A DNA stretch of 64,000 bases, from NCBI GenBank assembly GCA_002633005.1, contig NMRA01000378.1:62001-126000 (forward strand), read 5' to 3'. Source of the DNA: Phoronis australis. Lineage: Eukaryota; Animalia; Phoronida. The notes under the pieces are model-generated. The model was not told the DNA's origin, ran no database searches, and was given only the letters and a program-made list of their open reading frames with translations. Numbering within the stretch: the stretch's first letter is position 1; each line of letters opens with the position of its first letter. A program made the translations under genes and the position numbers. Shown piece by piece: positions 3,374 to 62,318 of the stretch.

Positions 3374-4674
3374 TCAACCACATTGATCCGATGACGCTCT
3401 AACCGCCGCTGTGCACTCTAGCCCAACGTCAAAAAATGCCAGAGCAATGTCTTTCTCAGAATATCGCTGAGATTTTGCCGCGTCCAACACGCCACAGACA
3501 GCCTTTGCCATCCCCGTACATCTCTTCCACGACATGACATTAGCCAGCCAAAACACTACATATGCTCTCTTAACACCCCAACCCTCTCTAGTAGCCAATT
3601 TGTAAAAGGCTCTGTTGAAAATTCCAGAGGTGTAGTGGATATCTATGGAATCTGAATAATCCCGGAAATGGGATTTCGATTTGCCGTCGATTCCTGGCGT
3701 GTCGAAATAACGCAATGCATCCAAAGCGCCACCTTTCTTTATCGACCGAGCGACTTTCCAGTCAACTTTACCGTTTAAGTAAAATTCCAATGCTTCACCC
3801 GAGATATCTGCGAAAGATTCTGAAATTGCACCAGATTGTAACCGGTTTTGTAAGCGGGAAGTTTCCAGTATAAATGCGTGTGCCATTTCGTGACCAACGA
3901 CATTTTCATCAGTCATGGGATGGAAAACTGTGTGGCCGTCCCCCAGGAAAACAGACTTTGAAGGAGGGTCGTACCGTGCAATGTCAAGCTTGTCGCCAAA
4001 ATGAACTCTGATGGTTATTGGAGGGCTCAGCACAACTCCTCTTTCAAACCACGCTTGGAACATTTCAAACATTTTTGTCCCGTGGTAATGGGCGTCGTTG
4101 ATTGGCGACCTGCCACCATTTATTGCGTCCGTATTGCCTGTAGCGCACGTATACGTGTGCGGCAAGGTGTTGCTCGTCTCCGACGTGAACTTGTTGTGGA
4201 CGAGGACTACTTTTGAATTCGACATGACGCACTGTAACGCTCGGCCCTCTGACACGTCTAGAAAACCTTTCTTCTGTCCAAAATAATACTCCCCAATCTT
4301 GTCATTTCCCCCTATCCCCATTGCGTTCAGTCTCAAATCACCTTCTCTCCACAAGCCAAAGACAGCAATGGTCACTGCGTCGACCCAAACGGTATACAAG
4401 AAATTATCAACAATCACCTTGCGTTCCCTAATAACCCCAGAAATTTGAATTTCGTAATATTGCCGAACAACCGAATCATTGCGCACATCTATCGATAAGT
4501 TGAAGTCATTCACTCTCCTCACACAAGGTCGCCGTAGTCCAGTCATCAGCAGTTTTACCACAGCATATTTAGCTGCCCTTTTGGCCATGTAGCGCGGTGG
4601 TAATTCAGATTTTGGCCTGAGATGCTGAAGGCCTACGAACAAGGTGCCGTACACGTTGTCTGTTAAAATTTGTC
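3374..4674 (-). CDS. M4 protease copy 1 terminal exon (PepSY-like region plus catalytic domain)
   Basis: Acceptor tatgtttcag|GACAAATT; open frame to TGA at 3374; HExxH plus downstream Glu. The paralogues diverge upstream of this acceptor. Confidence 0.92.
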
Positions 4675-7600
4675 CTGAAACATAAATGTTCATATGTATC
4701 TTAAAAATTTTGCAGATCCTCTGTTTCTTTATGTACCGAATTGGAACACATTTCAAACTGAAGGGTAGAAGTAAAGCTCGAGAATTTGAGTTCAGATTCG
4801 AAATGATAGCTTTAATTGGGGTCAAACAGAGCAAACTAGAGTTAGAAAGTCGTCCGCTGATTCACACCAACCATAATACAGCCATCATGGATTATGTTTG
4901 AATTGAAGCAGAACACAAATAACTAAAAACCATTCGACCGAGCACAGACTAGACACCCAGGCCTTATACACGATTTGCTACTGTGGGAATAAATCTACAC
5001 AAAAATGATGCTCTATAGTCACCGCAGTAACCGTTCTGCACATTTCAAACTAATATTATTACTTTGAAACTGTATGGCTCAGCAAACCTGTCTGACACTC
5101 GGACAACAGAGGTGTGCATGTATGTCTCACCAAACAGGACCTTACAGGAACTGTGAAACTATGAATCTCAACAAACATGACCTTATTTTTACAGTGAAAC
5201 AAACGAGGCTTTACTTGGACAATACAACCGTAGGACTCAGCAAACAGAACTTTAGTTGGACAGTGAAGCTGTCGTCTCAACAAACAGGACTTTACTTGGA
5301 GAGTGAAACTGCCCAGTAAACATGACAGCATTGGCCCAGTACTGGATATCTGTTGCTTGATAGCGCTTGTACCGTATACCGATTTACGTTTCTGGGCCAC
5401 TAATGGCCCAGTACCGTCCAACGACACTAACCCAGTGAACCCTTCCCTTACCGGGTCGCCGGTATTGGCCCCATATCGCTTGGCCGGTAAACACAGACTT
5501 GAACACAAGAGGGTAGTTTGACGCTTATCCACAGGGGGGCCAGGCTTACTATTTTTAACGCTAAAAACTTTTAAGTTTTCTTTAAAAAATCACCATCAGA
5601 TGTGTGACAATAAAACTTTTCAATTTTCATAAAAATTAATTACCAGCAGCTGTATTACAGTGTAATTTTATTTTTTAAAGAAAACTTTCCACCAGAAGAC
5701 CCTCATGAAAAAACCGCCATTTGAAATTTCCCTTGAAGAGCACTTGCCTTGTTTAGCGATTTTCTACAGTTTGAAACCAGCGTTCGTAACAGAATAGTGA
5801 AGGATTTTCACAGTGAACTTCAGATAAGTTTCATATTTGTTCACTTTGCATGCAGTGTCTGTAGAAGTAATACAAAACATGATTTATACCACAGACATTC
5901 TCAGCTTCTGATCGTCTCCAATACGAATGTCTCAACAGACATCTCGCTAAAATAAGACTTTAATTAGACAGTGAAACTGCATGTGCCAACAAACGTCGCT
6001 TTGGAAATGAGACCTTACTTGGACAGTGAAACTGTATCTCGTAATCCTCACACCTCTTCCCTTTTTTCTGGTCCTTATTCAGACAAACAATGCCGTCCAC
6101 CGGACTACATTTTATGGCCAGTAGATTTGGAGGAATCCCGGTGTCAGCGGTGAATTTGCTATACTTCTTTCCCTTAACACGGCACACAGCGTAATCCGGC
6201 GTACCTCCATTACACACATTCATTCCACGTCGCTGAAATGATGCAGTGGTTGCATACATGTAAAATCTGAATGCTAGTTACGGCTGAATGAGTGCATGTT
6301 ATAGTGAACTGGAGAAATTGGAGCCCCACATGTAATTATAGTCATTTAATATAATCGCCACGTTTCAGATTTAAATTGATAGTCATCAGTCTCATGAATT
6401 AAGCGAACTTCATTACTCCTTGTTTTCGAATAACGCTGTTCAGAAAAATGATCGCCATCACCGGAGTTTCAGCGCTATTCTGCGAGAGAAGTACTCTCAG
6501 GTATTTTGAATGGAGTTTCCCTTGACTGCCTAAAAGGCTTGCTCAAGACGGTGCGTTCTTTGTGAGGAGGCCATTGATACTTCTGCGAGAAACTATTTTC
6601 GTTTAGGCAATGAGCAGTCAAGAGTAGAAATGATTCCGAAACAGAATACACACTTCAGCCAAGATTGTCCGTCAAACGAAATTGACGTACATGTAAGTAT
6701 GCAATTATCTTATTTTCTCAACAGGAAGCATAGTCCTGTGTATTTATTGTGGCCAAGTCTCACACCTTGGTACAAAAAATGCACTATCTGTGGAAAGCAA
6801 TCAGAAGCAGCTTACTCGCATATCTTTTATTCTTTCACAGTCTCCGATTCCGTCTGGTGTATCTATACTAGTGAAAGTGGTCCAGTAGCCTATACAGGAA
6901 GCAAATCAAGTTATAATTTATATTCGCCATATGTCTCGAGTAAAATACTTGTGTCACAAGCTCGTTTCCATTGCTGAAAAGGGTACCGAGGTTGGCCAAA
7001 TCAAGTAATTTGTTTTTACAGACTAAAAATTCAAAGAATATTGGTTGAAAATAAGGTACAATAAGTAAAAAATATTAATTTCTGGCCACACAAGGAAAAA
7101 ACGCAACACAGACGTAGATTCGAGATGGTGACAAAAGTGATGGGAGTTAGTGGATGGGTAAGAATAAAATATTTAGACAGGTATGTCGGTGTATCTGACA
7201 CAAGGCAATAGAACTGAAGCAACAAACAAAAGAAATTTCTTTAGTCACGTGTCAGTCATCAGCCTGAAGAATAAACGACGTATCCGAATTGAGGAAAGGG
7301 TATACAAGAGAAAGGAGTCCCAGTATGTTGAAAAGTGGAAATGCTAGTTGTTGCACTTTCACTGCGCATTGAAGCGCGTAAATGTAATCCTCTGTGGTAT
7401 CAAATTGTTGAATGGTCGTTTACGAAAACGAAAATACATTTTCAAATACACCTGATCAGGTGAAATACTTACAAATTATTTTCATTTTAATTATCTTATT
7501 TCTGTACGCACAACAAATAACGAGTTTAAATGCTGACATGTACGTTTTATTTACCAATTGGCCGTCGTAATTTAATCTAGGGTTAGTAAACTAAATTGTC

Positions 7601-8543
7601 AAAACAACTTTGACGTTTCACAGTTTCGCGCCGGGTACGGCTCTCTGGTTATATGCAGGTATTTACTCAACAATTTACTCATGCAGGTACCTTTTCGTAT
7701 TGGCACGAATATTGAAGCGTCCTCCACTCTCGTGTCTAGGTAGTATTGGTGAGCTCGGCACCACGTCTGATTATTCAGGACTATGTCCTCGCTAAGCTTC
7801 ACTGTGTTGTTCAGTCCAAGGTCGAAATAGTCGTTAGGGTCGGGCGACACGACATTCTTCTTGATGAGTGAAGCCGCGCTGCGACTGTAAGCGGGATAGC
7901 GGTACTTCCAACCCCTCGCACGTAACCCACCTGCAAAAAGGCCACTAAATGGAGCGTGTTTTCGTTTGACCGTATACACTGTAGGGACAACTTTAGTTTG
8001 TTCAAAAAGCAAAAAAATGCACCCGTAAATCTGGCAAGCGATGTAACTTCACTCTGCGTGTTAAACTTAACTGCATAACAGGCAACCAGTACATAAATGG
8101 GACCAAACAGGTGCTAACTGTTTTAAGTTTCTTTATTTTTTTAAGACGTGTATAGTACTTGTATACGTTCAAATTCGAATGGACGCACGCTCTAACAGTC
8201 TCGTTAAGTAAACGCTCTTTCGCGGTGCACCCACCAATGCATCATCAGCATTACAAACTAAGAACGATAGAATTTGATACAAAACAGACTAGTGAAATAA
8301 GTTGTCTTTTTGCCCAGACTTCTATGCTCTTTATCAAACGTCCAATCACAGCAGTGAATACAAGCAAGAGCGAACGGAACACACGAGTTCACTGAACTAT
8401 GCCCAAGAAAGGTAGCCGTTGCTACACCACGCCAAGCTCTGGTACAACTGCAACTCATTGTACACGTAAACATTTTTTTTCTTTGCAAACATCTTCGCAT
8501 ACTTACACGTTAACAAAATGTATATGCAGAGTGCTCGCGCCAT
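3374..8543 (-). CDS. Secreted M4 (thermolysin/vibriolysin/LasB-like) zinc metalloprotease, copy 1. Exons 8507-8543, 7691-7930, [6816-6889, 6019-6232], 3374-4674; 525 aa, or 621 aa with the WxxW cassette
   Basis: All junctions are GT-AG and in frame. Signal peptide MARALCIYILLTCGLRARG; FTP motif CRAHQYYLDTRVEDASIFV; mature start GIGGNDKIGEYYFG; SPINDAHY; HEMAH; GAISESFAD; ALRYF; IHYTSGIFNRAFYKLA; WGVKRAYVVFWLAN. Copy 2 has identical exon sizes. Confidence 0.85.
5059..6040. repeat. Degenerate ~40-bp minisatellite matching the WxxW exon donor junction, interrupted by a ~600-bp insertion (~5310-5923)
   Basis: Repeated variants of caaacaggac-(c/t)ttacttggacagtgaaactg-ctcaa at 5059-5310 and 5925-6040. 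The same array occurs at 20660-20940 and 21680-21760. Confidence 0.6.
6019..6232 (-). CDS. WxxW (Mucin2_WxxW-like) domain, C-terminal exon, copy 1
   Basis: catttcag|CGA...CCAA|gtaagg; encodes VCNGGTPDYAVCRV...KCSPVDGIVCLNKDQKKGKRCEDYEIQFHCP, the six-Cys WxxW pattern. Confidence 0.8.
6816..6889 (-). CDS. WxxW domain, N-terminal exon, copy 1
   Basis: gtatag|GC TAC TGG...ATG CGA|gtaagc; encodes GYWTTFTSIDTPDGIGDCERIKDMR (WTxW/F...D.P...GD.E motif). Not visible as an ORF in the supplied track. Confidence 0.75.
7691..7930 (-). CDS. M4 protease copy 1, FTP propeptide exon
   Basis: tttgcag|GTGGG...CGAAAAG|gtacct; 240 nt, phase 1-1; contains RAHQYYLDTRV, matching the FTP RxxQxYxGxxV motif. Confidence 0.8.
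8507..8543 (-). CDS. M4 protease copy 1, first coding exon (signal peptide)
   Basis: ATG GCG CGA GCA CTC TGC ATA TAC ATT TTG TTA ACG T|gtaagt; conserved in copy 2. Confidence 0.75.
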
Positions 8544-18985: not shown

Positions 18986-20286
18986 TCAACCACATTGATC
19001 CGTTGACGCTCTATCTACAGCAGTGCACTCTAGCCCAACGTCAAAAAATGCCAGAGCAACGTCTTTTTCAGAATATCGCTGAGATTTTGCCGCGTCCAAC
19101 ACGCCACAGACAGCCTTTGCCATCCCCGTACATCTCTTCCACGACATGACATTAGCCAGCCAAAACACTACGTATGCTCTCTTAACACCCCACCCCGTTT
19201 TAGTAGCCAATTTGTAAAAGGCTCTGTTAAAAATTCCAGAAGTGTAGTGGATATCTACGGAATCTGAATAATCCCGGAAGTGGGATTTCGATTTGCCGTC
19301 GATTCCTGGCGTGTCGAAATAACGCAATGCATCCAAAACGCCACCTTTCTTTATCGACCGAGCGACTTTCCAGTCAACTTTTCCGTTTAAGTAAAATTCC
19401 AATGCTTCTCCCGAGATATCTGCGAAAGATTCCGAAATTGCACCAGATTGTAACCGATTTTGTAAGCGAGAAGTTTCCAATATAAATGCGTGTGCCATTT
19501 CGTGACCAACGACGTTTTCATCAGTCATAGGATGGAAAACTGTGTGGCCGTCCCCCAGGAAAACAGACTTTGAAGGAGGGTCGTAACGTGCAATGTCAAG
19601 CTTGTCGCCAAAATGAACCCTAATGGTCATTGGGGGGCTCAGCACAACTCCTCTTTCAAACCACGCCTGGAACATTTCAAACATTTTTGTCCCATGGTAA
19701 TGGGCGTCGTTGATTGGTGACCTACCACCATTTATTGCGTCCGTGCTGCCTGTAGCGCACGAATACGTGTGCGGCAAGATGTTGCTCGTCTCCGACGTGA
19801 ACTTGTTGTGGACGAGGACTACTTTCGAATTCGACATGACGCACTGTAACGCTTGGCCCTCTGACACGTCTAGGAAACCTTTGTGCTGCCCAAAATAATA
19901 CTCCCCAATCTTGTCATTGCCCCCTATTCCTATTGCGTTTAATCTCAAACCACTTTCTCTCCACAGGCTAAGGACAGTACTTGTCTCTGCGTCAACCCAA
20001 ACGGTATACAAGAAAGTATCAACAATCACCCTACGTTCCCTAATAATCCCACAAATCTGAATTTCGTAATATTGCCGAACAACCGAGTCATTGCGCACAT
20101 CTATCGATAACTTGAAGTCAGTCACTTTCCTCACATAAGGTCGCCGTAGACCCATCGTCAGCAGATTTACCACAGCATGTTTAGCGGCTTTTTTGGCCTT
20201 GTGACGCGGTGGTAATTCAGATTTTGGCCTGAGATGCTGGATGCCTACGAACAAGGTACCGTACACGTTGTCTGTTAAAATTTGTC
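18986..20286 (-). CDS. M4 protease copy 2 terminal exon (PepSY-like region plus catalytic domain)
   Basis: Acceptor tatgtttcag|GACAAATT, HExxH, stop at 18986. Confidence 0.92.
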
Positions 20287-23200
20287 CTGAAACATAAATG
20301 TTCATATGACTCAAAATAATTTCGCAAAATCCTTTGTTTCTATGTACCAAACTAAAAAAGTATCGTAAGTGTAGATGTAAAGCTCGAAAAGTAGAATTCA
20401 GATTCTAAAAGATAGCTTTAATACTGTGGTCAAAAAAGCACACTAGATTTTAGAAAGTCATCCACTGATCCACACCAACCATAACACACAGAACAAAATT
20501 TTGTATTGAATTAGAACACAAATGACAAAAACTATTCGATAGAGTACACAGATTAGACTTCAGGCTTTACATACGATTTGCTACTGTGCGAATAAATCTA
20601 CACTGAAATGGTGCCCTATAGTCGCTGCAGTAACAGTTCTGCACATTTCAAAATAATATTATTACTTTGAAACTGTATGGCTCAATAAACAGGTCTATAC
20701 TACAATAGAGGTGTATATGTATTTCTCATCAATCAGGACCTTACTGGAACTGTGAAACTATGTAAGTCAACAAATAGGACTGAATTTTTGAAGTGAAACA
20801 AACGGGGTTTTACTTGGACAATACAACCGTACTGTAGGACTCAGCAAACAGAACATTAGTTGGACAGTGCTTGGGAAGCTGTTTGTTACAAACAGGACTT
20901 TACTTGGAGAGTGAAACCGAATGTCTCAACAAACATCTCGCAAGAAATTAAATGTAACTTGTTAAATGCATTTATCGTCATTATTTTGACATTTGTCTCT
21001 TTAGTTTGATACTAACCCTTAGGGTTTATTTTGCATTACTCATCTCTATTTATAGCCTCAAGGGCCTACTTTTGTATTCATACAAGTCTCTACGCGACAC
21101 CTGATTGGTCGCCCATATTTCCTTTGTTCAGTTCAGCCTGGTCTCTCTCATTCAGCCACCTACCTTGTCGTCTACAAGACCTACGTTCGTTCTCTGCGTT
21201 TTTCCCCCACCCCCCATACCGGGTGTCGGTTCCACTTTCTCTTTTCTCCTAAACATTTCCTGTTAGGTTTTTTCAATTTTTGTGTTCATGTTCTGTACTT
21301 TTCCTTTACGCCCTTCAGGCAGTTCTTTTGTTTTGGTTCCCTCTTTCAGGGCTATTCATTGTACACGCCGGTGGGTGTTTTGTCCATGCCCATCTTGCAG
21401 AGTCTTAGTTAGTTTTATCTATTTACGTCATAATAAATGACATTATTCNTGACTCACAATAGAAGCCTGATAAGAGTGAAGGTGGATAAATGCGGTGTTC
21501 CTACAGTTTCTTGTTTTAGTGGATGTGTTCACGACATGTCCATGCCCATCTTGCAGAGTCTTAGTTAGTTTTATCTATTTACGTCATAATAAATAACATT
21601 ATTCGCAATCCTCCTCTGGTTTTACTCTGCAACATAGCTCGTGGCTTACCCCGGGCAAAATAGATTACGATAAATAAGACTTTACTAATTGGGCAGTAAA
21701 ACTGCATGTGCCAACAAACGTTTCTTTAGAAACGAGACCTTACTTGGACAGTGAAACTGTATCTCGTAATCTTCACACCTCTTCCTTTTTTTCTGGTCCT
21801 TATTCAAGCAAACAATGCCATCGACCGGGCTACATTTTATGGCCAGTAGATTTGGAGGAATCCCGGTGTCAGCGGTGAATTCGCAACATTTTTTCCCCTT
21901 AACACGACACACAGCGTAATCTGGCGTACCTCCATTACAAACGTTGATGCCACTTCGCTGAAATGATGCAATTGTTGCATACATGAAGAAACTATAGCAT
22001 TGTTATTTTGCTGGTTCTAACTTGAGGCAAATGAAGTAAAATGTGACTGCTAGTTACAGCTAAATGAGTGCATATTATAGGGAAGAACTTGTAGCCCCCA
22101 GACACAATATATAGTCATTAAATAAAATCGCCACGTTTCAAGATTTCAATTGATTAAATAAAGGCGAACTTCATTTCTATTTGTTAATACATGTAAGTCA
22201 ATTCAGAAAATAATCGAGATCACCGGAACTTTAGCACAGAGAATACTTTTGAAGGATGATTCTCTTGACTGCCTAAAAGGCTCGCACAAGACAGTGGATT
22301 GTACACCATTGATAGTTCTAAGAGAAACTATCTTTGTTTAGGCAATAGTCAGTCAAGAGTAGAAATGATTCCATGACAGAAATGCACTGTCCAACCACGG
22401 TTGTCGTTACGACGCCAAAGCCGGCAAAGTCCGTCAAACGAAATTGACGTAAGTAGGTAGACTGTAACATACAGTGGGTACCTCGAGAGTAACCACTGAG
22501 CTTGTTTTAACCCTCTTGAAGAAAAGTTTGTATTGGTCAGAATAAGAATAGATTTCAACGGAAACGTGTAAACAGGAAATATAACAAGAAACTTTGGAAA
22601 CTGTAGGCCTCTTCTTGCATGGGGTGAATCGTCCGAGTACCGTGATAACAATTATCTAATTTCCTCAACGGGCCAACTCTCTCTGAATGATATAAAAATA
22701 TACTATTTGTGGAAATAAATCGGAGACATCTTACTTGCATATCTGGTATTCTTTCAAAGTCTCCAAATCCATCTGGTGTATCTATACTCGTGAAGTTGGT
22801 CCAGTAGCCTACGTGGGAAGAAAATCAGGTTATAATCCATAGTCAGTCCCGAGTAAAATACCTGCGTCACAACCTCGTTACGAGAGCTGAAAATGCGACC
22901 AAGGTTGTCAAAATAAAGTTCACTTATTATGACAGAACAAAAACACAATAAATGTTTGTGAAACTAAGATAAAATCAGTAAAATATAATAATGTCTGGTA
23001 AGATCAGCAATAAAAAACCCACACAGAGTTACAAGGTTGTGACAAAAGTGACGTGAGGTAGTGGGCAATCGAGTAACACTGAAATGTTTAGACACGTGCG
23101 TCTGTGTAGCTGACACAAGACAATAGAACTGAAACATGTAAAAGCAAACAAAAGACATGTTACAGAATTGAGGAAAAAGGGGGTACAAGGGAAAGGAACT

Positions 23201-24354
23201 CATATGTTCATATCAATCTATTGAAAAAGGGAAATAATATATGTTGCACTTGCGCTGTACATTAATGCACGTACAGGAAATTCTCTGTCGTTCCAAATGG
23301 TTTGATGGTCGCTTACGGAAACGGAAATACATCTTCCAATACACTGATCAGGGAAAATACTTACAAATTATTTTCATTTTAATATCTTATTTCTGTACAT
23401 ACAACAACATTCACCAATTGGTCACCGTAATTTTATGTACCGTTGTCATAACAATTGTGACGTTTCACAATTTCCCAACGTGTACATGTACCTTTTCGCA
23501 TTGACACGAATATTGAAGCGTCCTCCACTCTCGTGTCTAGGTAGTATTGGTGAGCTCGGCACCACGTCTGATTATTCAGGACTATGTCCTCGCTAAGCTT
23601 CACTGTGTTGTTCAGTCCAAGGTCGAAGTAGTCGTTAGGATCGGGCGACACAACATTCTTCTTTATGAGTGACGCCGCACTGCGACTGCGGGCGGGGATA
23701 TGGTATTTCAAGGCCCTCGCAGGCAACCCACCTGCAACATGACCACTAATTTAAATAGAGTGTGTTTTCATTCGACCGTATGCACTGCAGGGACAACTTT
23801 TGCTTGTTCAAAAAGCAAAAATGCGCACGTAAAACTGCCAAGCGATGTAACATCACTCCGCGTGTTCAGCTTAATTGCATAACAGGGAGCCAATACATAA
23901 ATGAAATCAAACAGGTGCTTACTGTTTATTGTTTCTTTATTTTTTGTGTCGAGTACTTGTAAACGTTCAAATTGGGATTGAGATTTACTCATGCTCTAAC
24001 ATTCCTGTTTAGTAAACGCTCTTTTGCGGCAAACCCACCAACGCATCATCAGCACAGCTGAGAACGTTAGGGGTTCAGTGATACAATACATACCAATGAA
24101 CTAAGTTGCTTTGTTACCCCCACTTCTATGCTCTTTATCAAACCTCCATTCACACCAGTGAGTGAATACAAGAACCAGTAAACTGAACACACGAGTTCAC
24201 TGAACTGTTTCTACTTCGGAAAGGTAGCCGTCGATGCTCCACGGCAAGCTCTAGCTGGTGCAACGGCGTCTCATTGTGCACAGTATTTCTTCTTTGCAAA
24301 TATCTTCGCCTACTTACACGTTAACAAAATGTATACGCAGACTGCACGCGCCAT
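18986..24354 (-). CDS. Secreted M4 zinc metalloprotease, copy 2. Exons 24318-24354, 23492-23731, [22735-22808, 21744-21957], 18986-20286
   Basis: Same exon sizes (37/240/74/214/1301 nt), GT-AG sites and motifs as copy 1. Starts MARAVCVYILLTCGLPARA; has HEMAH, GAISESFAD and VHYTSG; no stops. Confidence 0.85.
21744..21957 (-). CDS. WxxW domain, C-terminal exon, copy 2
   Basis: catttcag|CGA AGT GGC...CCAA|gtaagg; six conserved Cys; CEDYEIQFHCP. Confidence 0.8.
22735..22808 (-). CDS. WxxW domain, N-terminal exon, copy 2
   Basis: acgtag|GC TAC TGG...ATG CAA|gtaaga; encodes GYWTNFTSIDTPDGFGDFERIPDMQ. Confidence 0.75.
23492..23731 (-). CDS. M4 protease copy 2, FTP propeptide exon
   Basis: gttgcag|GTGGG...CGAAAAG|gtacat; 240 nt. 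Confidence 0.8.
24318..24354 (-). CDS. M4 protease copy 2, first coding exon (signal peptide)
   Basis: MARAVCVYILLT followed by T|gtaagt. Confidence 0.75.
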
Positions 24355-26491: not shown

Positions 26492-26589
26492 CATGAGTAG
26501 CATTCTTGATTTATCAGTACGCACTGCGACTTAGAATCACTGGCGGTCCACTCGTGAGGGGCCTCTGTCTCCGCATCTGCTGGATTACA

Positions 26590-29500
26590 GCACTAGTCTA
26601 GCGGTAGTCCAAGGAAAGATGTTTTTAAGGACATTTTTATTATTTTTCATCTATTTTGACCCATAGTGGACATCGTTCTGTTTCGTAGCACAGGTGCATT
26701 TTTGTTATTCATATACCCGTAGGCTAGCGTTCAACTGAACTCTCACCAAAACTGCTGGGAGGGCACTTGATTACTGAACTCAAAGCCTAGTTCGAGTTGT
26801 TGTCACGAAAAAATAAACAGCTAATGAATTACTTTTTGATGAGAACCTCTAGTATACACTTCGTCTGCAGAGTTAAGGAGGCCTCATTTTGTAGTTGTTC
26901 AAACACGATACTTAGATTTATGAATCTTTAAAAACAACATTTTTGTTTTTTTTGTAAATGTGATGGCCACTTTTTGCTAATATACCAGACTTGTTACCAT
27001 ACCACAGCTTAGTAATCATCCTACGTTTAAGATTAAATGCAAACTACCTTTATGCAATGAAACCACAAAAAATATGAAGTTCATCAGAAGATTTGCCTTG
27101 ATGGTGCACTGAATAACGGCCATTATTCCATGCGTTAACTTTGACTTTTGGAAACAGCCTTGGACCTACTTGAAGCTAACTGCTTGCCTAGGATAAGATG
27201 GGTTTTTGCCTGAGGTACGAACCTGATTTTTTAATCAAAATAATTTGCTCGAAGATTAGGAAACTATAAACAGTGCTATCGACTTGACATAATTTACTTG
27301 GAGAATACAATCAGTTGTGGTCTACTTTTCATTTGGCGGTATTTAGCACCAGGCAGAATAAAAATATCTGCGAATCTTCACTGATTTTGTTCGAAATATC
27401 CTGAAATCTATGGCATCGTACAGAAAATTTGACTTGAAGGTAAATATTCAGCTTTACATGAACGTATCGGATCAGTGGCCTTGTCAGTTTTCAAGTGAAG
27501 ATGAACCCGGTGTGGGGTTCTTTGGGTTTTCGCCTGGCTCCGAAATACTTTTCCTCGAACACTTATTTTTTCATCGTCGCAGCTTTAAAAATTCCCAATG
27601 CATGAACGTACGATTCTAAGCTGAAAAGTACCGCCTGTTTTCTACGTCGAAGCCCTTTCGGAAAGTGCAAAAACGCTCATCAATTCCACCAGGAACGTCG
27701 TTTAGCAACTGTGTATTTGCCTCTTACATCTTGTTTGTTTGTCGGTTATCACGTGACTTTTCGCAAGGACGCAGCGCTTGCGATAGGTCAATTTCTTTGA
27801 CTTGGCTGCTATGACAAACCACGCGGAAGTGACGTGAGCACTGGAAAAATCCACAGATTTCATCAAACTTTGTATCTTTTGCTCACTCAACTCTGGCTAC
27901 ATTTGTATAACGATATGTGCATTATTTAGAGGGGGTGGTTTGCTCATAAAACTGGAGGAAGAATTTTTGGTGTTTTTCTTGATGTAGAAATTTCAAATTT
28001 AACTTTTACAAAAAATAGGACTTCTAACAAAAAAATTAAAAGTTCTTCGTCCCGATTCTAAAAAATCGACCATATTTTCGTATATAAATAACCTTCACAC
28101 CCTTGGTAAGGACTGTCCTATGTGAGCATAGACAGGTGTGCCGTCCATTCTGCGTGTTGTGAATTGACCTATCGCCAGGATTATGACGGACGGCTTAATT
28201 GACCAGTCAGAACGCAGCATTCTTGGCACACCTTCGTCTGCGTTGAAGCTGCTATTTTACCCGAGAAACCACACGTAGTCGAGTAAAACTCACTTTAGTC
28301 TATAGCTCAAGAAATTGTCCGCTAAGAATGGGGAAAAGGTGTTGATATGGCGTGTGTATCACCGACAGCCGTTATGCTGCTCCACTGAGAAGAATATCCC
28401 GTCATTTTTTGGCATGTTCTAAGCCGAAAGATGATGTTGAAAAGCGTTAAAATGGATCAAACTGTACGGCCACACGAGCAGCTGAACTTAGCGATGTTGC
28501 TTGATAACTCGAAGGCTATAGTAAACACAAATATATTAGTTCCAAGATACAGTGTACGTACTTTTCAGCTTGGTGGCTATGGTGCAGGGCTATCTCAGAT
28601 TCTGACTCCCGAGTTTCCTACGTCTGACCGCCTTTTTCTCGGCACCTGCTCGGGATCTCAACACTCTAGCGGTAGTCCCCGGAATTTGTTGTTTTCAAGA
28701 ACATTTTTGGTTTATTTTTTATTTATTTCAACCTAATGGACATTATTTTGTTTCGTATCAGAGGTACATTTTTGTTATTCATAAACCGTAGGCTGGCGTT
28801 CAACTGAACTTCTCTCCCTGTCAAAATTCAGAGATTCGATCGGCACAGGGAAGGGCACTGGATTACTGTCGGAACTCAAAGCCTTCTTGGTCGAGCTGTT
28901 GTCACAAAAAATAAACTGTTGAACTACTTTTTGACGTGTACCTCTAGTATACACTATGTCTGTAGGGTTAGAGAGGTTTCATTTTGAAGTTGTTCAAACA
29001 TGATATTTAGATTTATGAAGCTTTAAAAAAGAATTTGAGTTATTTTTGTAAATACATGTACCCTATTTTTGCAACTAACACACCAGATTCGTAATCTTTT
29101 GTAACCATACCACGACTTAGTGATCATGCTACCTTCAAAATGAAATGAAAGCTACCTGTATGGAACTGAACTACAAAAAAATGCCAAGTTCATAAGAAGT
29201 TAGGCTTAATTTAAATGTCTTATTGGTGCAAACGGACAATTCCATAGGCGGATTTAGGGGGGCAGGGGCCCCAGCCCCCCCTTGACTGCCGCAAGGAAAA
29301 TGAAACAGCAAGAGCGTGAGGAAATATTGAGTTCAGTAACTAGGACCGGTAAAGGAAGAGGGGGGCTCAGACGCCAGATCGCGGCGGAATCGTGTTCCTG
29401 TTTTTTTAGTCCACCGATAGATTTTCTGAACAGAAGTTCCAACGGTATACATCCCTGGCCCCTGCAACTTTCGGGCCGCCTGTACACTATACAATTGCAC

Positions 29501-30178
29501 TTTGCCCAATTCCACGAGGCAACATATGTTGGCCCCCCTGTGGTATCCTAGATCCGCCACTGAATTCCAGACATTAATTCGACTTAGACACTGCCCTAGA
29601 CCTACCGGAGCTAACTGTTAGTGGCCAGGACGAGATGAGTGTGTACCTGAGCTATAAACCTGAATTTTTTATCAAAATATTTCTTTACAAGATTAGAAAA
29701 GCGTAAACAGTGCTATCGAGTCGACCTTTTCAGAGACTATAGTGCATGTGTTGTTTGTAATCTATGACTTACTTTACTCCAGGAGTCCCACCAGTTGTAA
29801 CCTACTTTTCATTTGGCGAAATTTAGCAGACGACAGAATAAAAATATCGGTGAATCTTCACTGATTTTATTCGACAGATCATGAAATCTATGGTTACGTA
29901 CAGATAATTCGACTTTAAGGTACATACCCAGCTTTACATGAACATATCGTATCAGTGGCCTTGTCATTTGTCACGTGAATGTGGCCCCGAGGCCGGGGGG
30001 TTCTTCGGATTTTCGCTGGCTCCTCAAGCACTTATTTTTTCATCGTCACCTTAACAAATTCCCATATCATGAGCGTGCGATTCACTGTTGAAAAGCATCC
30101 CCTCTTGTCTCTGTCGACACGTTTTCAAATAGTACAAAAACACTCATCGATTCCACCAGGAACGTCGTTTAGCGCCAG
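26590..30178 (+). repeat. Diverged direct duplication of ~1.2 kb (A: 26590-~27850; B: 28665-30178, continuing at 43652-~43760)
   Basis: Colinear similarity from tctagcggtagtcc to ttccaccaggaacgtcgtttagc. The continuation gtgtatttgcctct.acatct lies at 27711 in A and 43651 in B. Confidence 0.8.
29243..29562. mobile_element. CA..TG MITE (GGCGGAT-type termini) with a 5-bp TSD (aattc)
   Basis: cataggcggatttagg ... cctagatccgccactg, with aattc on both sides. Absent from duplicate A. Confidence 0.75.
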
Positions 30179-33800: not shown

Positions 33801-34781
33801 CACACTGCCCAACTCTTGCCACGAGGAGGCCCCCTCAGTATAATTTTGAAAAACTGTTCGAAAAGACCGAAATGTTGACTAAAATCACTGCTGTATTATG
33901 TACATCATAACCACAAGAATGAAACACTAGCATGTTGCTCAAAACACTGAGCAAAACATAATGGTAATAGTAACATACAAGGCACCCCCACTTTGAGAGC
34001 CAGTGTTTTCTACTGTACAACAGGAACCTGTTTTTCACTGAGTAGCAGGGGTTAAAACTTGTTCTCAAAATTTGGATTGCCAGTGAGTGACTATTGCCTG
34101 AATAACAATCCAACCCAAGTAACACACAAGAAACCGTCAATTTGGGTTTAGTGACCTAGCTTGAAATCTTTGAAGTACCCTGAGCTCCCAATTTTGAAAT
34201 GTGAGATGTTTTTGCAACTAGTAGTCATTTTAACGAACCAGGTTTTTAAAGTTCGTTTGCATACAATGTCTAACTCCAGGATGCTTTGATTACAGCGAAC
34301 CTTAGTAGATTCAGAATGGTTCTGAGATCTTGTTTTGCAATTAGACTGAAATTAATAGCTGATTGTTGCAAACTCTACAACACTTGACATCATGTGAACG
34401 TGGAAAGCAAAAATGAAACAGTCGAAGAGTCGGGGTCCAGGAGAGAGGAGACTTGCATAGATTTCATATGATCAAATGTGACACTCTGACCAGTGACTCG
34501 GGCATTGCAAAATTCACCATGAAAGGGTGAATTTCCAAATAAATTCCACACAAAAATATTTACTTTTTGGTTGTAACTGTATAAAATAACCCATTTTAGC
34601 ACCAAAAACCACGGAAGGTTTCAGATGCAACTGAAGTTTCTTGTTTTAAAAAGAATACAGCCCAGAGAGCTTTTTGCTGAAATTCAATTCCCTGTAACTT
34701 TGCATAATTATGTTATCAGAAAATTTGACTCTTTCATTGAGGCTCTCACCAAAATGGGTCAGTTTTAATCACTGTGCCAAT

Positions 34782-37700
34782 GGGGCTATTCGGAAAATCC
34801 ACAATCACTAGAGGGCGTGCGTGTACTAGTGGTGATAGATTAACAGCTTCGATTTCGCGAGCCCTTTAAATACATGGTGAAATGGCTTGCAGCCGTGCCA
34901 ACTGAATCTGAGATTGCGTAAAAAGGGTGCTTCTATGAGAGGAAGTGAGCACGACCTCATACAAAGGTAAGGTTTGTGATCATTTTAACGATTATTACAT
35001 GATTATTCTACCGATGCCTGTTAACTGAGGCACTCGCCGATGTCGACTTCGCGGCAGTCAGTCGCCAGCCAGAGTCTGGTTAATCTTTGTATGTTGTGAT
35101 ATGTGATACGATACTTGACGTAGCAATCGGGATCTTTTCGTACATCAAAGCATTATTATTGTTTGGAATGATTTCTAAAAGTTTATCAGTGACAGTTACA
35201 TCAACCAATGCTGAATATTTATGCTGTCAACTCGATACAGGTTAATGAGTTAAGATTACAATCCAATCCCAATGGCAAAGGGTACGTGAGTGATAAATAT
35301 CCATTGCATTAGACTATTTGTTTACTCCCTATCATGTCTTCTGGAAATCTATTACACGTTGAAATGGAAATCTATTACGTCAGTTTTCACGTAACCTTTG
35401 GTTTTTAGGTTTGAAGGCTACTACCGTGCAGAGGAGATATGCATCGCTTCTGCACCGTCCCTGAATGGACAAAAATTGGTTTTTAGCATTTGACTGCAGC
35501 TAACCAACAAGATCTTCCCATCCAGTACAGATCTGTTGTCAAAGCCTACTTTCAATATTTGAGACAACGAACAAAGCCTTTGAAAAGGAACAGCTATTTT
35601 TAAAGTCATTTTGTTAAATTACTTATTCAGGTCCCGAGGGGGGATTGTCATGGGGGGGTTGTAATATTTGGTACAACTGAATATGTGGAAGTAACAGGTA
35701 ATGCATGTTTGGAGAAAAGAGCATGGTGAGGTAATTTTTAACCTTCACGAAGTCCCTTCAAGTTGATTTCATGAAACTGTTTTGCTACTTGTATCAATTG
35801 CAAAACCACGAAAATATATTACATTTTCCGAATTCACAGTGACTGAATAGCCTTAGCCCATGCCTTGAAATGTTGCAAGTCGTTATAAATTCAAATGACT
35901 GCCATTTTTGTGAAAATTGCATTTTTGATTGTGCCTTATTATTTGTAATTACTAGTACTCTTAAACAACAGAAAGATTATCCATCATTTTTAAATGACCC
36001 AAGTCTTCATATCTTCTATTAGAAGAAAAATTAAAATTAGTCTGAGAAACGGTTCCCTCAACCTTAGTCTAGAAATATGCTTGACAGACCCATGAACCTA
36101 TAATCTGAGTTTAAAATTGCTGAAAGTATCAAAATTAAAAAGGCTTGAAAATGGGTAACAAAGGTTTGAAGTTGTCTCAAAAAACTTGTATATTTTACAG
36201 ACGAGTGATGCTTTAAAGAATTGTTATGGCTAGGGATAAAAAATAAAGACACAGTTTTATGCAATACTCATTATATACACTCTTGGTTTCTGAAAATAGT
36301 AATTATTTACTTTTATGTGAAACTGTAGACCGATCACCACATATTTTTGAAAAACAGGGATAACATATTTGTTCCAGGTTCAGTGACATTTTAAGGCCAC
36401 TTCAAGCTGTATCATAGACAAGCTTTGTTACTCCGTTCTCTTCCCACAGCACTTCCACACACCAGCAGTGCTGCATGGCACAATGTGCAAGTCAGTGGTC
36501 CTGGAGAAATGTGAATCGCAGTACTAAGTTACCATAAGACAATGTGCCAGTGGAGTGTCTGTGTATCCAGACGAACTATATCTGACTGCTACACAAATAA
36601 GCCTTGTTGGTGAGGATGCCCTTTCATAGGCAATGAGTCATGTGTGGACAATAGCTTATTTCCTTTCCTGGAAGAAACATGAGGGACTGAAGCTAAAGAA
36701 GACCTAGTAACACTCTGGTCTAGCTCAGAGTCTGATTTTGGGCTCAAAACGATTCAAGTGATATGCTGCTGTGTTTACCTTCAAGGGTCTAATTGTGGAT
36801 GTTATTGAGGCTGAATGAGGTTACATGAAAGAAAGCCACGTGTTGAAACTGGACCTTTTTTACAAGCGCTTCTATAGGCCATTGAAACTAGAACCCAGTG
36901 AAATGAAAGCCAAAAGCTGAGTGACATTAAATTTTCCTTTCAGAAGAAAGGCTTTATACTATTGGTAAAAACTTTTCAATTTGGTACAGATTATGGGGAA
37001 ATGACATTCAGTGACTGCATCGATTGTCTCATTGTATGTTTTCAATTGTAGCTAGCTGGATAAGAATCTGCTATGCACAAGATTCGAGAATAAACAATTA
37101 TCAGTGTATTTAAAAACAAATGGCAAACTGAAAAAGCACAGAAAGAAACAACATTGCGAGGGAGTCCATAATCAGGCATATCAGGTGCTGAATTTCTGAA
37201 TTACGTTCAATTCTCTCAGGTTATTGCTGAAGGATTGCTTTTCACTTTGTCCAACGGTGAAATAGATGGTCAGGCGGTTGGTTTCAGTTGTTTTTTCTTG
37301 CCTGTAACAGAATAGAAATATTAGCAAATTGTAAAAGAAAAGACAAGACAAAACTACTTTTGTAAGGCAGAACATACTTGACATTTCATCTTCATGTTTA
37401 TGTGTAGAAACTAATAACCTTTGTACCCAAGTCTTATTTAATATCTGAATTAAAATATGTGAAACAGGCTAAAAGTGATTTAACAATGTGTATTTTTCAT
37501 GACACTTAAAATGTGCTTCTGATCTCAACAAGTAAAATTCATTCTAGGTGTCAATTTTTTTCCAATGCAATGTTACGACATTTACTGAATTAAGGCTTAT
37601 TCATGTTAATTCGATAACTGAGCTGGTGGTCCTGGGGGTGGGGTCCACGATAAAATAAGGAAACTCACTCATCTAGAGAATTTTATTGGAAACAGCATAG

Positions 37701-38280
37701 TTTTGAAGAGAAACTGCTGTGAAAAAGTCACTCTTGACTTCTGTGCATCACGTACCATACACCTCTTATTTTGGGAGCACTCCCACCCAGGACAATATGA
37801 ATATGTGCTGCTAGCCTACCCGGCATCGGGTGAGTTTCCAAAAAGAAACACTTAGTTCCACTCAATAAAACTGTTATTCAGTGGGGTAACTGGTGGGGAT
37901 AACATCACCGAACGATGTTGATAGAAACTGATTGCTAAAAACTTACCAAGTAATGTTGTGTAGTCTCCGAATGGAACTGCATAGTCATAGACATAGAGCA
38001 CACACGGGGCTTCAGCATCCACACACTTTTTGTCAGTTAGTTGACCCTGTTGACCGCAATTGTCCACGAATATAGTAACCTTAGGTCTTTTGGGAATTTG
38101 TGGCCACCTGTCGAAGACTTGCACCAGGGAAATTAGCAGTAATAAGGCTTAGCGCGACGACGTATTTTGATAAAAATTCCATCTTTTACCAGTTGTTCAC
38201 ATGCAGACAGCCACGCATGCGCAATTCAATCACCACTAGTACAGCAGCGACACCGCGAGGAGAATTCTCCGAATAGCCCC
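34782..38280. mobile_element. ISL2EU-like DNA transposon (degenerate), copy 1
   Basis: TIRs GGGGCTATTCGGA(A/G)AAT with AT on both flanks. The + strand has a SAP-like remnant (LRKKGASMRGSEHDLIQR, ~34900-34966) and YqaJ-exonuclease-like remnants (AVLHG, LYLTAT..LVGED, LKLKK, VFTFKG; 36380-36900). The - strand has a THAP remnant (C.FPWC...HKFPKD...W...VNR; 38000-38150). Confidence 0.75.
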
Positions 38281-38686
38281 ATTCAAAAAAGGGTGAGGTT
38301 TTATCTTGCTGACTATACAAAAGAGTGTGTATAATCTTAATTTCACAGCAACAAACACCCTCCGAAATAACTGAATACTCTGTACGACTGTAGGATGGCA
38401 GTCAGAGGCACTGCTGAATGGCACTGCTGAATGCCACCACTACAAGCGATGTCAGTCATAATAAAACTATTGCTAGACTGGTTATTGTTTGTGTGTTTAG
38501 GACCATTGACTCTATTTTTATGCTCCTAACTTCTGTGTGTAGTGACAAGTGTGCCAGTGTATTATACATTACAATGACAATGTCATAAATAGCAGTATTT
38601 CAGCATATATCCTTATCTGACCCAATTCAACCTTCACGGTAATCACGGGAGCTTACATAACATACATGAACATGTTAACATACGAG

Positions 38687-45400: not shown

Positions 45401-47287
45401 CATTCTGTGCTGTCGGCCTCCACATGGTAAGCTGCCTTGTCAGTAGCTCTGATTTGTCGAAGGACTGTGAGCGCATGCAGGTATTTGTCATGAGTGGGAG
45501 GAAGATTAGAAACTTTGTGGTGAACACAGATTTTTTCCTCGGCGTATATTAAAAATCATATCGTGGATTTTGTGATTGTTCGTGGAGATTCCCTCAGAGG
45601 GAAACTGAGCAAAATCTGCAGTAGGCGCTGCAAGATGGTAGTTTCAGCATTTGTTCCATGCTTTTTTAAAACCACGTTCATAGCAGTAGGTTCATACCTC
45701 CCGTCGGCGTATTACATGTGATCCATAGGTGGCGTTGAACGCCTGTCCACCAGAGACTTGATCAACGTCAGGCGGAATAGCGAATTTTAATATGGCGCGT
45801 CTACTTCGAAAATCAGTAATTGGCCTGAGAGCTGGAAAAACGAAGGCCAAGGGAACGCGTAACAGCAAACCACGACCAAATGAAAAATCAAATAATTGCT
45901 CCCCTAGCGATCACGTTTTATATTCACTTAGCGTTGTGTATGCATCAATGATGTGGCTCGCATACAAAATAAAAAATGCATTTGTTGATCCTTTACTTTT
46001 TACCAACAAGCATTTACGACTAAAATGCCACATTTGTTTGTGCAAATGAAAAATAAACATTTTCAAATATTAAACAGGTACTTCGAGAGGAAAGATATAT
46101 AGAAATTAGGAAGTACTACAAAACGGCTTACAAATAAGTAGCGGTAAAAATATCCACCATGCATCAAGTGTCAGAGGAGACAAAACTGAAGGCACTTTTT
46201 TGAACAACTGAAAGTAGTTGACATTCGCTGGAATCCAGAAGTGTGTCATTTCCATGATTTGAGTAAACATACAATAAAACTGCCGTTTATCGAATGGATT
46301 TAATTCCACGAAGGAGCTTTAGGTTGCATGGCTGCGGAATGTAGAGGGTCGATTATGCGCTGCCGCTCCTTTCAGACGTTGCTTTTATCGCCGATTATGC
46401 TCGATAACAAACATTGAAATAGAAAATGTCAAAGCTTTCTTCTGATTTGATTTAGGGTAAAAAGATAGACACCGGGAACTGCCAGGTTTAATTAAAGTCC
46501 TACTCTCAAACTGCCCATACGGTTCCAGTATCCGAAAATACTAACTACATAAAATCTTATTTTCGAAACCCTTTCTTTATATTCTTTCGCCTTTCTTGCC
46601 AAAAGCGATTTTTGAACAGTATTTGACTCTTCTCTCTGAGCGTATGATTACCGGTTGTCATCCGTTATTTCCGTACCCACATTTCCGGCTCATCAGTTCA
46701 GGAACTTGTCCTGAAAGCCGCCATTTTCCCCTTGTAACTGAATGTGCTATCGCTTGCTCGAAAAGTCTTCATTTTGTTTTGTTAGTAACATCTCGTGATT
46801 CGTTTGCATATGTAGTGTATTGTTAGTGGTCGTTGATGTTTTTTGGAATGTTACGCGTACTTAGTAGGTTAAAATAGCATTGGTGTTTAGTTCCTTACGT
46901 AGGCGGGTCGAACCTAGGAACCAATATGGGTCGAACCTATTTTTTTCGTTTTTTTTTCTCGTTTTGAAAAAGTACTTTGCTATCATCGGAAAGGTAGTGC
47001 ATTCTACTCAGTAAAAATCGAAAAAGTATCAAAACCGGGGCAAGCAGTGTAAAGTTATTGCAAGTTTGTGGCGAAATTTGGGTCACTTTGTTTAGATCGC
47101 GTCGGCCATATTGGAGGACAGCGGGATAAGTTACGAGTTTAAAACTTTGTGTAAATTGTTTTCGCCAACAAATTACGGTGAAATTTAGTTAGACATATCT
47201 TTACTTACTATTCTGCACGATTTAACAGTGTTCACCCAATTTCAGCCTCGCAGTTGTTACTCATTAAGTGATAAATGAGCTCACAAT

Positions 47288-50200
47288 GGGGCTATTCGGA
47301 AAATCTGCAACAACTAGAGGGCGTGCGTGTACTAGTGGTGATAGATTAACAGCCTCGATTTCGCGAGCCCTTTAAATACATGGTGAAATGGCTTGCAGCC
47401 GTGCCAATTGAATCTGAGATTGCGTAAAAAGGGTGCTTCTATGAGGGAAGTAAGCACGACCTCATACAAAGGTAAGGTTTGTGATCATTTTAACGATTAT
47501 TCCATGATTATTCTACCGATGCCTGTTCACTGAGGCACTCGCCGATGTCGACTTCGCGGCAGTCAGTCGCCAGCCAGAGTCTGGTTAATCTTTGTATGTT
47601 GCGATATGTGATACGATACTGGACGTAGCAATCGGGATCTTTTCGTACATCAAAGCATTATTATTGCTTGGAATGATTTCTATAAGTTTATCAGTGGCAG
47701 TTACATCAATCAATGCTGCATATTTATGCTGTCAACTCGATACAGGTTAAATTTGAGTTAAGGTTACAATCCAATCCCAATGGCAAAGGGTACGTGAGTG
47801 ATAAATATCCATTGCATTAGACTATTTGTTTACTCCCTATCATATGTCTTCTGGAAATCTATTACACGTTGAAATGGAAATCTATCACGTCAGTTTTCAC
47901 GTAACCTTTGGCTTTTTAGGTTTGAAGGCTTGTACCGTGCAGAGGAGATATGCATCGCTTCTGCACCGTCCCTGAATGGACAAATATTGGTTTTTAGCAT
48001 TTGACTGCAGCTAACCAACAAGATCTTCCCATCCAGTGCAGATCTGTTGTCAAAGCCTACTTTCAATATTGGAGACAACGAACAAAGCCTTTGAAAAGGA
48101 ACAGCTATTTTTAAAGTCACTTTGTTAAATTACTTATTCAGGTCCCGAGGGTGGATTGGCAAGTGGTGGGTTGTAATATTTGGTACAACTGAATGTGTGG
48201 AAATAACAGGTAATACATGTTTGGGGAAAAGAGCATGGTGAGGTAATTCTTAACCTTCACGAAGTCCCTCCTAGTTGATTTCATGAAACTGTTTTGGTAC
48301 TTGTATCAATTGTAAAACCACAAGAATATATTACATTTTCCGAATTTACAGTGACTGAATAGTCTTAACTCATGCCTTGAAATGTTGCAAGTCGTTATAC
48401 ATGTACATTCAAATGACTGCCGTTTTTGTGAAAATTGCATTTTTGATGGTGCCTTACGATTTGTAATAACTCTTAAACAACAGAAAGATTATCCATCATT
48501 TTTAAATGACCCAAGTCTTCATATCTTCTATTAGAAAGAAAACGGTTCCCTCAACCTTAGGCTAGAAGTATGCTTGACAGACCCATGAACCTGTAATCTG
48601 AGTTAAAAATTGCTGAAAGTATCAAAATTAAAAAGGCTTGAAAGGTTTGAAGTTGTCTCAAAAAACTTGTATATTTTACAGACAAGTGATGCGTTTAAAT
48701 AATTGTTATGGCTAGGGATAAAAAATAAAGACAGTTTTATGCAATACTCATTATATACACCCTTGGTTTCTGAAAATAGTAACTATTTACTTGTATGTGA
48801 AACTGTAGACCAATCACCATGTATTTTTGAAAAACAGGGATAATATTTTTGATCCAATCTGGAGTACTTAATTATTCATATTTCAATATTTGTTCCAGGT
48901 TCAGTGACATTTTAAGGCCACTTCAAGCTGTATCATAGACAAGCTTTGTTACTCTGTTCTCTTCCCACAGCACTTCCACACACCAGCAGTGCTGCATGGC
49001 ACAATGTGCAAGTCAGTGGCCCTGGAGAAATGTGAATCGCAGTACTAAGTTACCNNNNNNNNNNNNNNNNNNNNNNNNNNNNNNNNNNNNNNNNNNNNNN
49101 NNNNNNNNNNNNNNNNNNNNNNNNNNNNNNNNNNNNNNNNNNNNNNNNNNNNNNNNNNNNNNNNNNNNNNNNNNNNNNNNNNNNNNNNNNNNNNNNNNNN
49201 NNNNNNNNNNNNNNNNNNNNNNNNNNNNNNNNNNNNNNNNNNNNNNNNNNNNNNNNNNNNNNNNNNNNNNNNNNNNNNNNNNNNNNNNNNNNNNNNNNNN
49301 NNNNNNNNNNNNNNNNNNNNNNNNNNNNNNNNNNNNNNNNNNNNNNNNNNNNNNNNNNNNNNNNNNNNNNNNNNNNNNNNNNNNNNNNNNNNNNNNNNNN
49401 NNNNNNNNNNNNNNNNNNNNNNNNNNNNNNNNNNNNNNNNNNNNNNNNNNNNNNNNNNNNNNNNNNNNNNNNNNNNNNNNNNNNNNNNNNNNNNNNNNNN
49501 NNNNNNNNNNNNNNNNNNNNNNNNNNNNNNNNNNNNNNNNNNNNNNNNNNNNNNNNNNNNNNNNNNNNNNNNNNNNNNNNNNNNNNNNNNNNNNNNNNNN
49601 NNNNTTTTTTCCAATGCAATGTTACGACATTTACTGAATTAAGGCTTATTCATGTTAATTGATAACTGAGCTGGTGGTCCTGGGGGTGGGGTCCACGATA
49701 AAATAAGGAAACTCACTCATCTAGAGAATTTTATTGGAAACAGCATAGTTTTGAAGAGAAACTGCTGTGATAAAGTCACTCTTGACTTCTGTGCATCACG
49801 TACCATACACCTCTTATTTTGGGAGCACCCCACCCAGGACAACATGAATATGTGCTGCTAGCCTACCCGGCATCGGGTGAGTTTCCGAAAAGAAACACTT
49901 AGTTCCACTCAATAAAACTTTTATTCAGTGGGGTAACTGGTGGGGATAACATCACCGAACGATGTTGATAGAAACAAATTGCTAAAAACTTACCAAGTAA
50001 TGTTGTGTAGTCTCCGAATGGAACTGCATAGTCATAGAGCACACACGGGGCTTCAGCATCCACACACTTTTTGTCAGTTAGTTGACCCCGTTGACCGCAA
50101 TTGTCCACGAATATAGTAACCTTAGGTCTTTTTGGGAATTTGTGGCCACCTGTCGAAGACTTGCACCAGGGAAATTAGCAGTAATAAAGCTTAGCGCGAC

Positions 50201-56619: not shown

Positions 56620-62318
<5,699 letters not shown>

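Follow-up and report, generated by a model that had tools for sequence, protein, structure and literature searches.

The nearest described relatives of the enzyme part of the locus presented here are the bacterial elastase/vibriolysin-type proteases of the thermolysin family (M4). According to PMC3831164, the vibriolysin propeptide acts as a chaperone or inhibitor and is cut autocatalytically, with attachment occurring via the C-terminal domain. The other part of the locus belongs with the CysD (Mucin2_WxxW) modules of gel-forming mucins. CysD of MUC2 forms non-covalent dimers (PMC3195396), and MUC2 CysD1 is described in PMC7599080 as binding two calcium ions, making quaternary contacts in the filament and being needed for assembly at low pH. 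The module appears with Bilateria and was lost in hexapods (PMC4948705). Since public annotation already includes M4 proteases of other invertebrates, a bacterial-type protease in an animal is not in itself the new part. In the current study, two tandem genes of Phoronis australis were found to encode an M4 zymogen with a CysD module placed inside its propeptide, and the cassette was found joined to the protease exons in transcripts of one of them.

Gene structure and genomic context

The window (the whole 64-kb stretch of DNA that was analysed) has a G+C content of about 40% and reads as animal nuclear DNA. It carries two collinear gene copies, A and B, about 15.6 kb apart (Table 1). Their identity is 87% around the last exon and 72–77% across the upstream exons and introns, from which they are taken to be tandem paralogues; no further matches to either gene were found inside the window. 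Each copy has five coding exons (37, 240, 74, 214 and 1301 nt) separated by introns in phases 1, 1, 0 and 1, and all eight introns of the two copies have GT-AG ends. Both genes encode, in order, a predicted signal peptide, a propeptide and a thermolysin-family (M4) domain, the signal peptide being called from the hydropathy of gene A exon 1 (peak 2.6, residues 5–13). The coordinates and phases that the original prediction gave for exon 2, the two cassette exons and the start of exon 5 of gene A, exon 1 being absent from that prediction, proved exact. So did its statement that the reading frame is kept with or without the cassette, which spans 96 codons (74 + 214 nt) with phases 1-0-1.

Table 1. 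Coordinates of the features found in the window
Feature	Position (nt)	Strand	Description
Gene A	coding 8543-3374	minus	open frame of 621 residues
Gene A exon 1, coding part	8507..8543	minus	contains the start codon and a hydrophobic segment predicted to be a signal peptide; phase 1 at its end
Gene A exon 2	7691..7930	minus	N-terminal propeptide, most of diverged FTP motif; ends in phase 1
Gene A exon 3	6816..6889	minus	74 nt, phase 1-0; taken as CysD N-terminal part
Gene A exon 4	6019..6232	minus	214 nt, phase 0-1; body of CysD/Mucin2_WxxW module
Gene A exon 5	3374..4674	minus	1301 nt, intronless, starts in phase 1; last FTP strand, PepSY-like unit, M4, stop codon
Gene B	coding 24354-18986	minus	open frame of 621 residues
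Gene B exon 1, coding part	24318..24354	minus	placed by tblastn and GT-AG check
Gene B exon 2	23492..23731	minus	diverged FTP part, 10.6 bits on propeptide profile
Gene B exon 3	22735..22808	minus	74 nt
Gene B exon 4	21744..21957	minus	214 nt, CysD body, PF13330 31.0 bits
Gene B exon 5	18986..20286	minus	PepSY-like unit and M4, frame intact; Pfam
Calmodulin gene, last two coding exons	59952-59710, 59357-59329	minus	EF-hand matches; canonical, spliced, animal
THAP-like segment	15014-15295	plus	weak THAP-domain match below cut-off, between copies A and B
Local duplication	34778-38283 vs 47284-50330		91–96% pair
Local duplication	26561-27706 vs 28630-30173		70–74% pair
Tandem array	54475-55055		exact 301-nt units
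Tandem array	60261-62071		exact 451-nt units

The remainder of the window includes local duplications and tandem arrays, in the open frames of which Pfam gave no match. The THAP-like segment is probably a transposon remnant. Rfam and tRNA searches of the window gave no matches.

The CysD module

The 214-nt exon alone matches PF13330 (Mucin2_WxxW) with 34.6 bits in A and 31.0 bits in B, above the cut-off of 22.4, so the mucin-type WxxW domain named in the original prediction is present in both copies. The matches cover positions 47–88 and 32–88 of the 88 in the profile. PF13330 clusters were also the first matches among Atlas features for this exon, at a recognition score below the mark of that tool, and its best match in the PDB was MUC5AC (8ov0), which is weak (E 0.019). 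Six cysteines are common to the module of A and B.

The 74-nt exon alone has no Pfam match. It contains the eponymous motif, which reads W-x-x-F and not W-x-x-W in both copies, a detail in which the description of a full WxxW domain needs correcting. The same exon carries an acidic D-x-P-x-G-x-G-D-x-E stretch, presumably the calcium-binding start of CysD as judged from family motifs, and by position and this motif it is taken as the N-terminus of the module.

Site of insertion in the propeptide

The propeptide is strongly diverged. Pfam FTP (PF07504) and PepSY (PF03413) gave no match up to an E-value of 1 in exons 2 and 5 of either copy. With a profile built from 149 propeptide sequences, exon 2 aligned at the FTP position with 8.5 bits in A and 10.6 bits in B, where the best of 1000 shuffles reached 4.6 and 5.0; the FTP exon that had been proposed upstream of the cassette is thus recovered by the custom profile and not by Pfam. 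Smaller profiles separated it less well: with 69 rows and hhalign exon 2 was not separated from shuffles, and with 87 rows 2 of 1000 shuffles scored above exon 2 of A. With the cassette deleted computationally, exons 2 and 5 formed one uninterrupted alignment to this profile, scoring 17.9 and 29.1 bits, and shuffling the exon-2 part of the cassette-less form 1000 times gave at most 6.4 and 15.6 bits.

In the relative P0001 the Pfam FTP match spans residues 59–104 and the insertion point aligns to about residues 92–97, which would mean that CysD splits FTP at its last hairpin turn. The cassette is therefore inside the propeptide, as originally predicted, but the alignment puts it within FTP itself rather than between FTP and PepSY. 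This turn varies in length among 39 bacterial relatives. The spacing from FTP to the maturation motif is 234 residues here. In the 125 of 165 proteins that have both motifs it has a median of 133 and does not exceed 197, and so none of these 125 measurable proteins has a comparable insert.

Downstream of the insertion, exon 5 is modelled as a helix and four-strand PepSY-like unit, which matches the propeptide chain of MCP-02 (3nqz_A, E 0.011), followed by the thermolysin fold. Exon 2 folded alone reached a pLDDT of 44, and a prediction of the complex between exons 2 and 5, run without alignments, scored 0.18 against a mark of 0.34.

Transcription and splicing

RNA data comprised three raw-read runs (18–19% of each read) and a contig from a fourth run, with splice joints being listed only from 3 reads per run. 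The reads over the exons of gene A lie on one strand. All three joints that tie the cassette into gene A, and for which the original prediction had proposed a check, occur in each of the three raw-read runs: 7691>6889 with 40, 6 and 7 reads (53 in total), 6816>6232 with 33, 5 and 10 (48) and 6019>4674 with 23, 3 and 8 (34). The first intron (8507>7930) is spanned by 15, 0 and 4 reads, representing two alleles, and also in contig X1. A 724-nt contig from the fourth run extends from exon 1 of gene A into the catalytic exon 5. Allelic differences were seen at nt 7793, 7800, 7807 and 3448 (run X2 and contig X1); three of the four change a residue, and one of the four removes N54, a context residue of the N53 glycosylation motif.

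Reads placed on gene B carry the letter of gene A at all 21 listed coding differences, with a few per site showing the letter of B; most of them belong to A, and the junction between the two CysD exons of B is not among the listed joints (threshold 3 reads per run).

Since the cassette is symmetrical, skipping it would keep the frame and restore an uninterrupted propeptide, and the original prediction had raised the idea that activation is switched by alternative splicing. Such a switch would alternate a canonical zymogen with a form that is anchored or slow. The runs available gave inclusion only. At the same threshold, the skip joint 7691>4674 of gene A was listed in none of the four runs and its counterpart on gene B was not listed either, while the inclusion joints of A have 23–40 reads in the deepest run. 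With no skip reads at all, the share of skipping would be at most about 7% (95% upper bound); this bound rises to about 13% with two unseen reads and to about 23% with six. With inclusion well covered and no skip junction listed, the splice-switch idea is unsupported, and splicing of the cassette in gene A looks constitutive. Phase symmetry is expected from the way in which such a cassette would arrive, and does not require regulation; a switch of this kind must be considered very unlikely indeed.

Selection on the two copies

A and B differ in the 214-nt exon by 14 synonymous and 6 replacement changes, exactly the approximate counts given in the original prediction, and the formal calculation bears out the purifying selection proposed from them (dN/dS 0.10; Fisher p 2e-6). 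Both CysD exons together give 0.155 (p 2e-6), the 74-nt exon alone 0.33 (not significant), exon 2 0.24, the mature protease part 0.144, and the PepSY segment 0.59, which is not distinguishable from 1. All of these values come from one paralogue pair, and they are rough because of this and because exon 2 bears a sign of gene conversion. The sign is a run of more than 100 identical bases (7691-7825 vs 23492-23626) in genes with a synonymous divergence otherwise of 0.16–0.37, which suggests gene conversion. The CysD cassette is under purifying selection and about as constrained as the mature protease (0.155 vs 0.144).

Constraint of this type could also arise if the insert were a passenger tolerated at a permissive turn and constrained only to fold. 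Variation of the turn length in relatives is in keeping with such tolerance, and an unfolded cysteine-rich insert would harm secretion, so that some constraint is expected from that alone. However, precise loss in frame by skipping is possible and was not seen, and the dN/dS of the 214-nt exon (0.10) is below that of the adjoining PepSY segment (0.59). A mere passenger is accordingly rated very improbable.

The catalytic domain

Peptidase_M4 and Peptidase_M4_C were matched above the Pfam cut-offs in both copies (55.5 and 89.3 bits in A, 53.5 and 90.6 bits in B). The best solved relatives of exon 5 are Pseudomonas pro-elastase and MCP-02, and alignment to solved relatives predicts that the mature enzyme starts at L304 (site R303|L304); CysD would then lie entirely in the portion normally cut off. 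The protein ends just past the catalytic domain and, unlike many relatives, has no C-terminal PPC domain. A model of exon 5 built from 40 rows adopts the thermolysin fold (pLDDT 75; Foldseek E 1e-24 to MCP-02), and leans toward the bacterial relatives because the alignment is mostly bacterial.

Residue equivalents (Asn112, Trp115, Tyr157, Arg203, His231) are given in thermolysin numbering. The HEMAH motif and third zinc ligand are present (H450, E451, H454, E474), as in all 157 other M4 domains compared, and R510 and H535, the equivalents of Arg203 and His231, are kept and are the same in 156 of the 157. The remainder of the substrate-contact set is changed: the Asn112 position is Ile420 (Asn in 142 of 157), Tyr157 is Asn465 (Tyr in 150) and Trp115 is Tyr423 (Trp in 149). 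The Asn of GxxNExxSD is also altered, and of 106 columns with at least 95% conservation across 146 loci, 36 differ here. The incomplete contact set lowers the case for activity like that of bacterial M4 enzymes, not the case for homology. With these changes, self-maturation and even proteolysis become uncertain, and proteolytic activity of the gene A product, as judged from its residues, is plausible and not assured.

The gene may therefore no longer encode an effective protease, the product being an uncut, secreted zinc-binding scaffold or peptide-binding protein in which CysD serves for adhesion or cross-linking. The altered positions would fit this, as they include ligand contacts in thermolysin, where Asn112 and Tyr157 hydrogen-bond the ligand (PMC5571745). 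The Asn is retained in all 12 animal or animal-like homologues and the Tyr in 11 of them, and the branch of A and B is long. Several features stand against this: both copies keep the three zinc ligands and the catalytic Glu, as well as the equivalents of Arg203 and His231; the zinc-site segment is identical in A and B; dN/dS is 0.14 in the mature domain; and a hydrophobic residue occupies the predicted P1' position. On balance a non-proteolytic product is judged unlikely, though by no means far-fetched.

Relatives and origin

A HMMER protein search with no length limit returned 4697 matches, of which the best 150 have at most 45% identity. The sources named among 30 of these best 150 include two animal clusters (Lingula anatina, Haliotis asinina) and four marine bacteria. 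Word-index protein searches gave five and one bacterial-type relatives, and none with the CysD exon. PF13330 was absent from the 30 of 168 homologues that were scanned with Pfam, and a search of 154 homologues with a weak CysD profile made from two sequences gave no match (best E 0.92).

Bacterial-type best matches at such modest identity would be compatible with an assembly artefact or with bacterial contamination. Contamination and misassembly are refuted by the spliced RNA reads over gene A, which are strand-specific; the GT-AG introns, the collinear paralogues with diverged introns and the calmodulin gene on the contig point the same way, and the chance of an artefact is negligible.

The animal or animal-like M4 proteins comprise P0096 and P0155 (Lingula), P0144 and P0164 (Haliotis), P0086, P0032, P0063, P0115, P0122, P0125, P0135 and P0138. 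They are varied: some carry PPC domains or two ShK domains, and some have Thr-rich linkers close to the maturation site. No literature on these animal M4 genes was found within a partial coverage of journals and in main texts.

In a tree of 40 rows these 12 proteins are spread over more than one group, and A and B join, on long branches, two proteins with bacterial TSP3 repeats. The branch of A and B is long in all three trees that were made. None of the three identified a bacterial donor, and a count of rare residues held in common did not single out the sister rows. M4 proteins with bacterial TSP3 repeats (P0033, P0151 and P0158) deviate in the Asn112 and Tyr157 regions and group with A and B. 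Constraining A, B, Lingula and Haliotis to be together was not rejected (p-AU 0.30), and a common origin with the Lingula and Haliotis M4 genes is neither shown nor rejected by these comparisons. The protease part of A and B is likely to be bacterial in origin.

Possible function and significance

The reading preferred here, tentatively and with slightly less than even confidence, is that gene A gives one mRNA for a protein of 621 residues in which CysD interrupts FTP, probably loops out and would hold the enzyme, while latent, in mucus or matrix up to the loss of the propeptide. The animal lineage would have acquired an elastase/vibriolysin-type M4 pre-pro-protease gene from bacteria, and a two-exon CysD cassette with phase-1 ends would have been shuffled into a phase-1 site at the last hairpin turn of FTP; the symmetrical phase-1/1 cassette fits the exon shuffling suggested in the original prediction. 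The sampled transcripts of gene A include the cassette, which is under purifying selection in A and B alike. In the protein, FTP and PepSY are predicted to fold together still and to serve as chaperone and inhibitor, CysD forming a side lobe that may bind mucin-like polymers non-covalently. Since CysD lies upstream of R303|L304 and there is no C-terminal PPC domain, anchoring would be limited to the zymogen or to the cut propeptide-enzyme complex. Loss of the propeptide would free a protease that is probably less active than bacterial M4 enzymes or narrower in its action. Two points count against a mucus anchor in A and B: the function of CysD is known from vertebrate mucins, and the module here has W-x-x-F and six shared cysteines where MUC2 CysD has five disulfides.

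CysD could instead act inside the cell, in folding, in calcium- and pH-dependent packing or in sorting of the zymogen into mucin-type secretory granules, with no anchoring after release. The position of the module in a part that is normally discarded is consistent with this, as are the calcium binding and low-pH filament assembly of MUC2 CysD1 (PMC7599080). Such a role is, however, compatible with anchoring in mucus and differs from it only in the place of action; taken alone it appears distinctly unlikely. A further elaboration of the preferred anchoring of the latent enzyme, speculative and improbable as it is, would turn the inhibitor into both a mucus anchor and a trigger: a zymogen stored in the gel through CysD, poor at self-maturation owing to its altered active site, might be freed by the cut of another protease, for example a bacterial M4 enzyme favouring the hydrophobic residue at R303|L304. 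If true, this would be a microbe-sensing protease switch made from a captured bacterial gene.

In this locus, as transcripts confirm, an animal extracellular module sits within a motif of a probably bacteria-derived enzyme, and the insertion point can be read to the codon. It indicates that a captured zymogen can be rewired via its propeptide instead of its ends, and marks a site in the M4 propeptide that tolerates a whole domain. The product is also a small natural protein with which to ask what invertebrate CysD modules bind, and the locus points to a group of invertebrate M4 proteases.

Comparison with known systems

Genes A and B share with the elastase/vibriolysin subgroup of M4 (Pseudomonas pro-elastase, MCP-02; PDB 8cr3, 3nqx, 3nqz) the order of signal peptide, FTP, PepSY and catalytic domain, the HExxH motif with its downstream Glu, the G-x-G-G-N start of the mature part, and the fold. 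Unlike these, they are spliced animal genes with FTP split by a 96-residue insert, lack PPC, have changed equivalents of Asn112 and Tyr157, and have a propeptide too diverged for Pfam FTP and PepSY. The proteins of Lingula anatina (XP_013384835.1, XP_013378819.1) and Haliotis asinina (XP_067678922.1, XP_067678923.1) are likewise bacterial-type M4 zymogens in animals, and some invertebrate M4s also have animal-type additions, such as Thr-rich linkers near the maturation site or, in P0086, two C-terminal ShK domains. In contrast to A and B, these and P0086 have an intact FTP, no PF13330 and a conserved Asn112 equivalent, and their additions lie at or after the maturation site, whereas that of A and B is inside FTP.

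The inserted module resembles the CysD (PF13330) of gel-forming mucins in its length of about 95 residues, its richness in cysteine, its acidic N-terminal stretch and its Pfam match above cut-off. It differs in having W-x-x-F, in occurring as a single copy in an enzyme propeptide, and in lacking a PTS or VWD context; the modules of A and B have six cysteines in common, compared with the five disulfides of MUC2 CysD.

The closest parallel for the fusion as such is found in the arthropod HGT-chimeras (Kapoor et al. 2026, PMC13389597), which combine foreign and animal segments in one frame and one mRNA under purifying selection. The main text of that survey contains no occurrence of thermolysin, peptidase, protease, mucin or exon shuffling. 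A CysD nested in the FTP of an M4 zymogen was not found in protein searches or in literature covering part of the journals without supplements. In gene A one transcript joins both parts, and both are under purifying selection as measured in one paralogue pair. The chimera of an animal extracellular module and a bacterial-type zymogen that was originally proposed is thus a transcribed gene with PF13330 and M4 domains. HGT-chimeras as a class and invertebrate M4 genes are already known. In contrast to the arthropod cases described in that text, the animal module here lies within a motif of the foreign gene, and it is this nesting of CysD in FTP that appears to be new.
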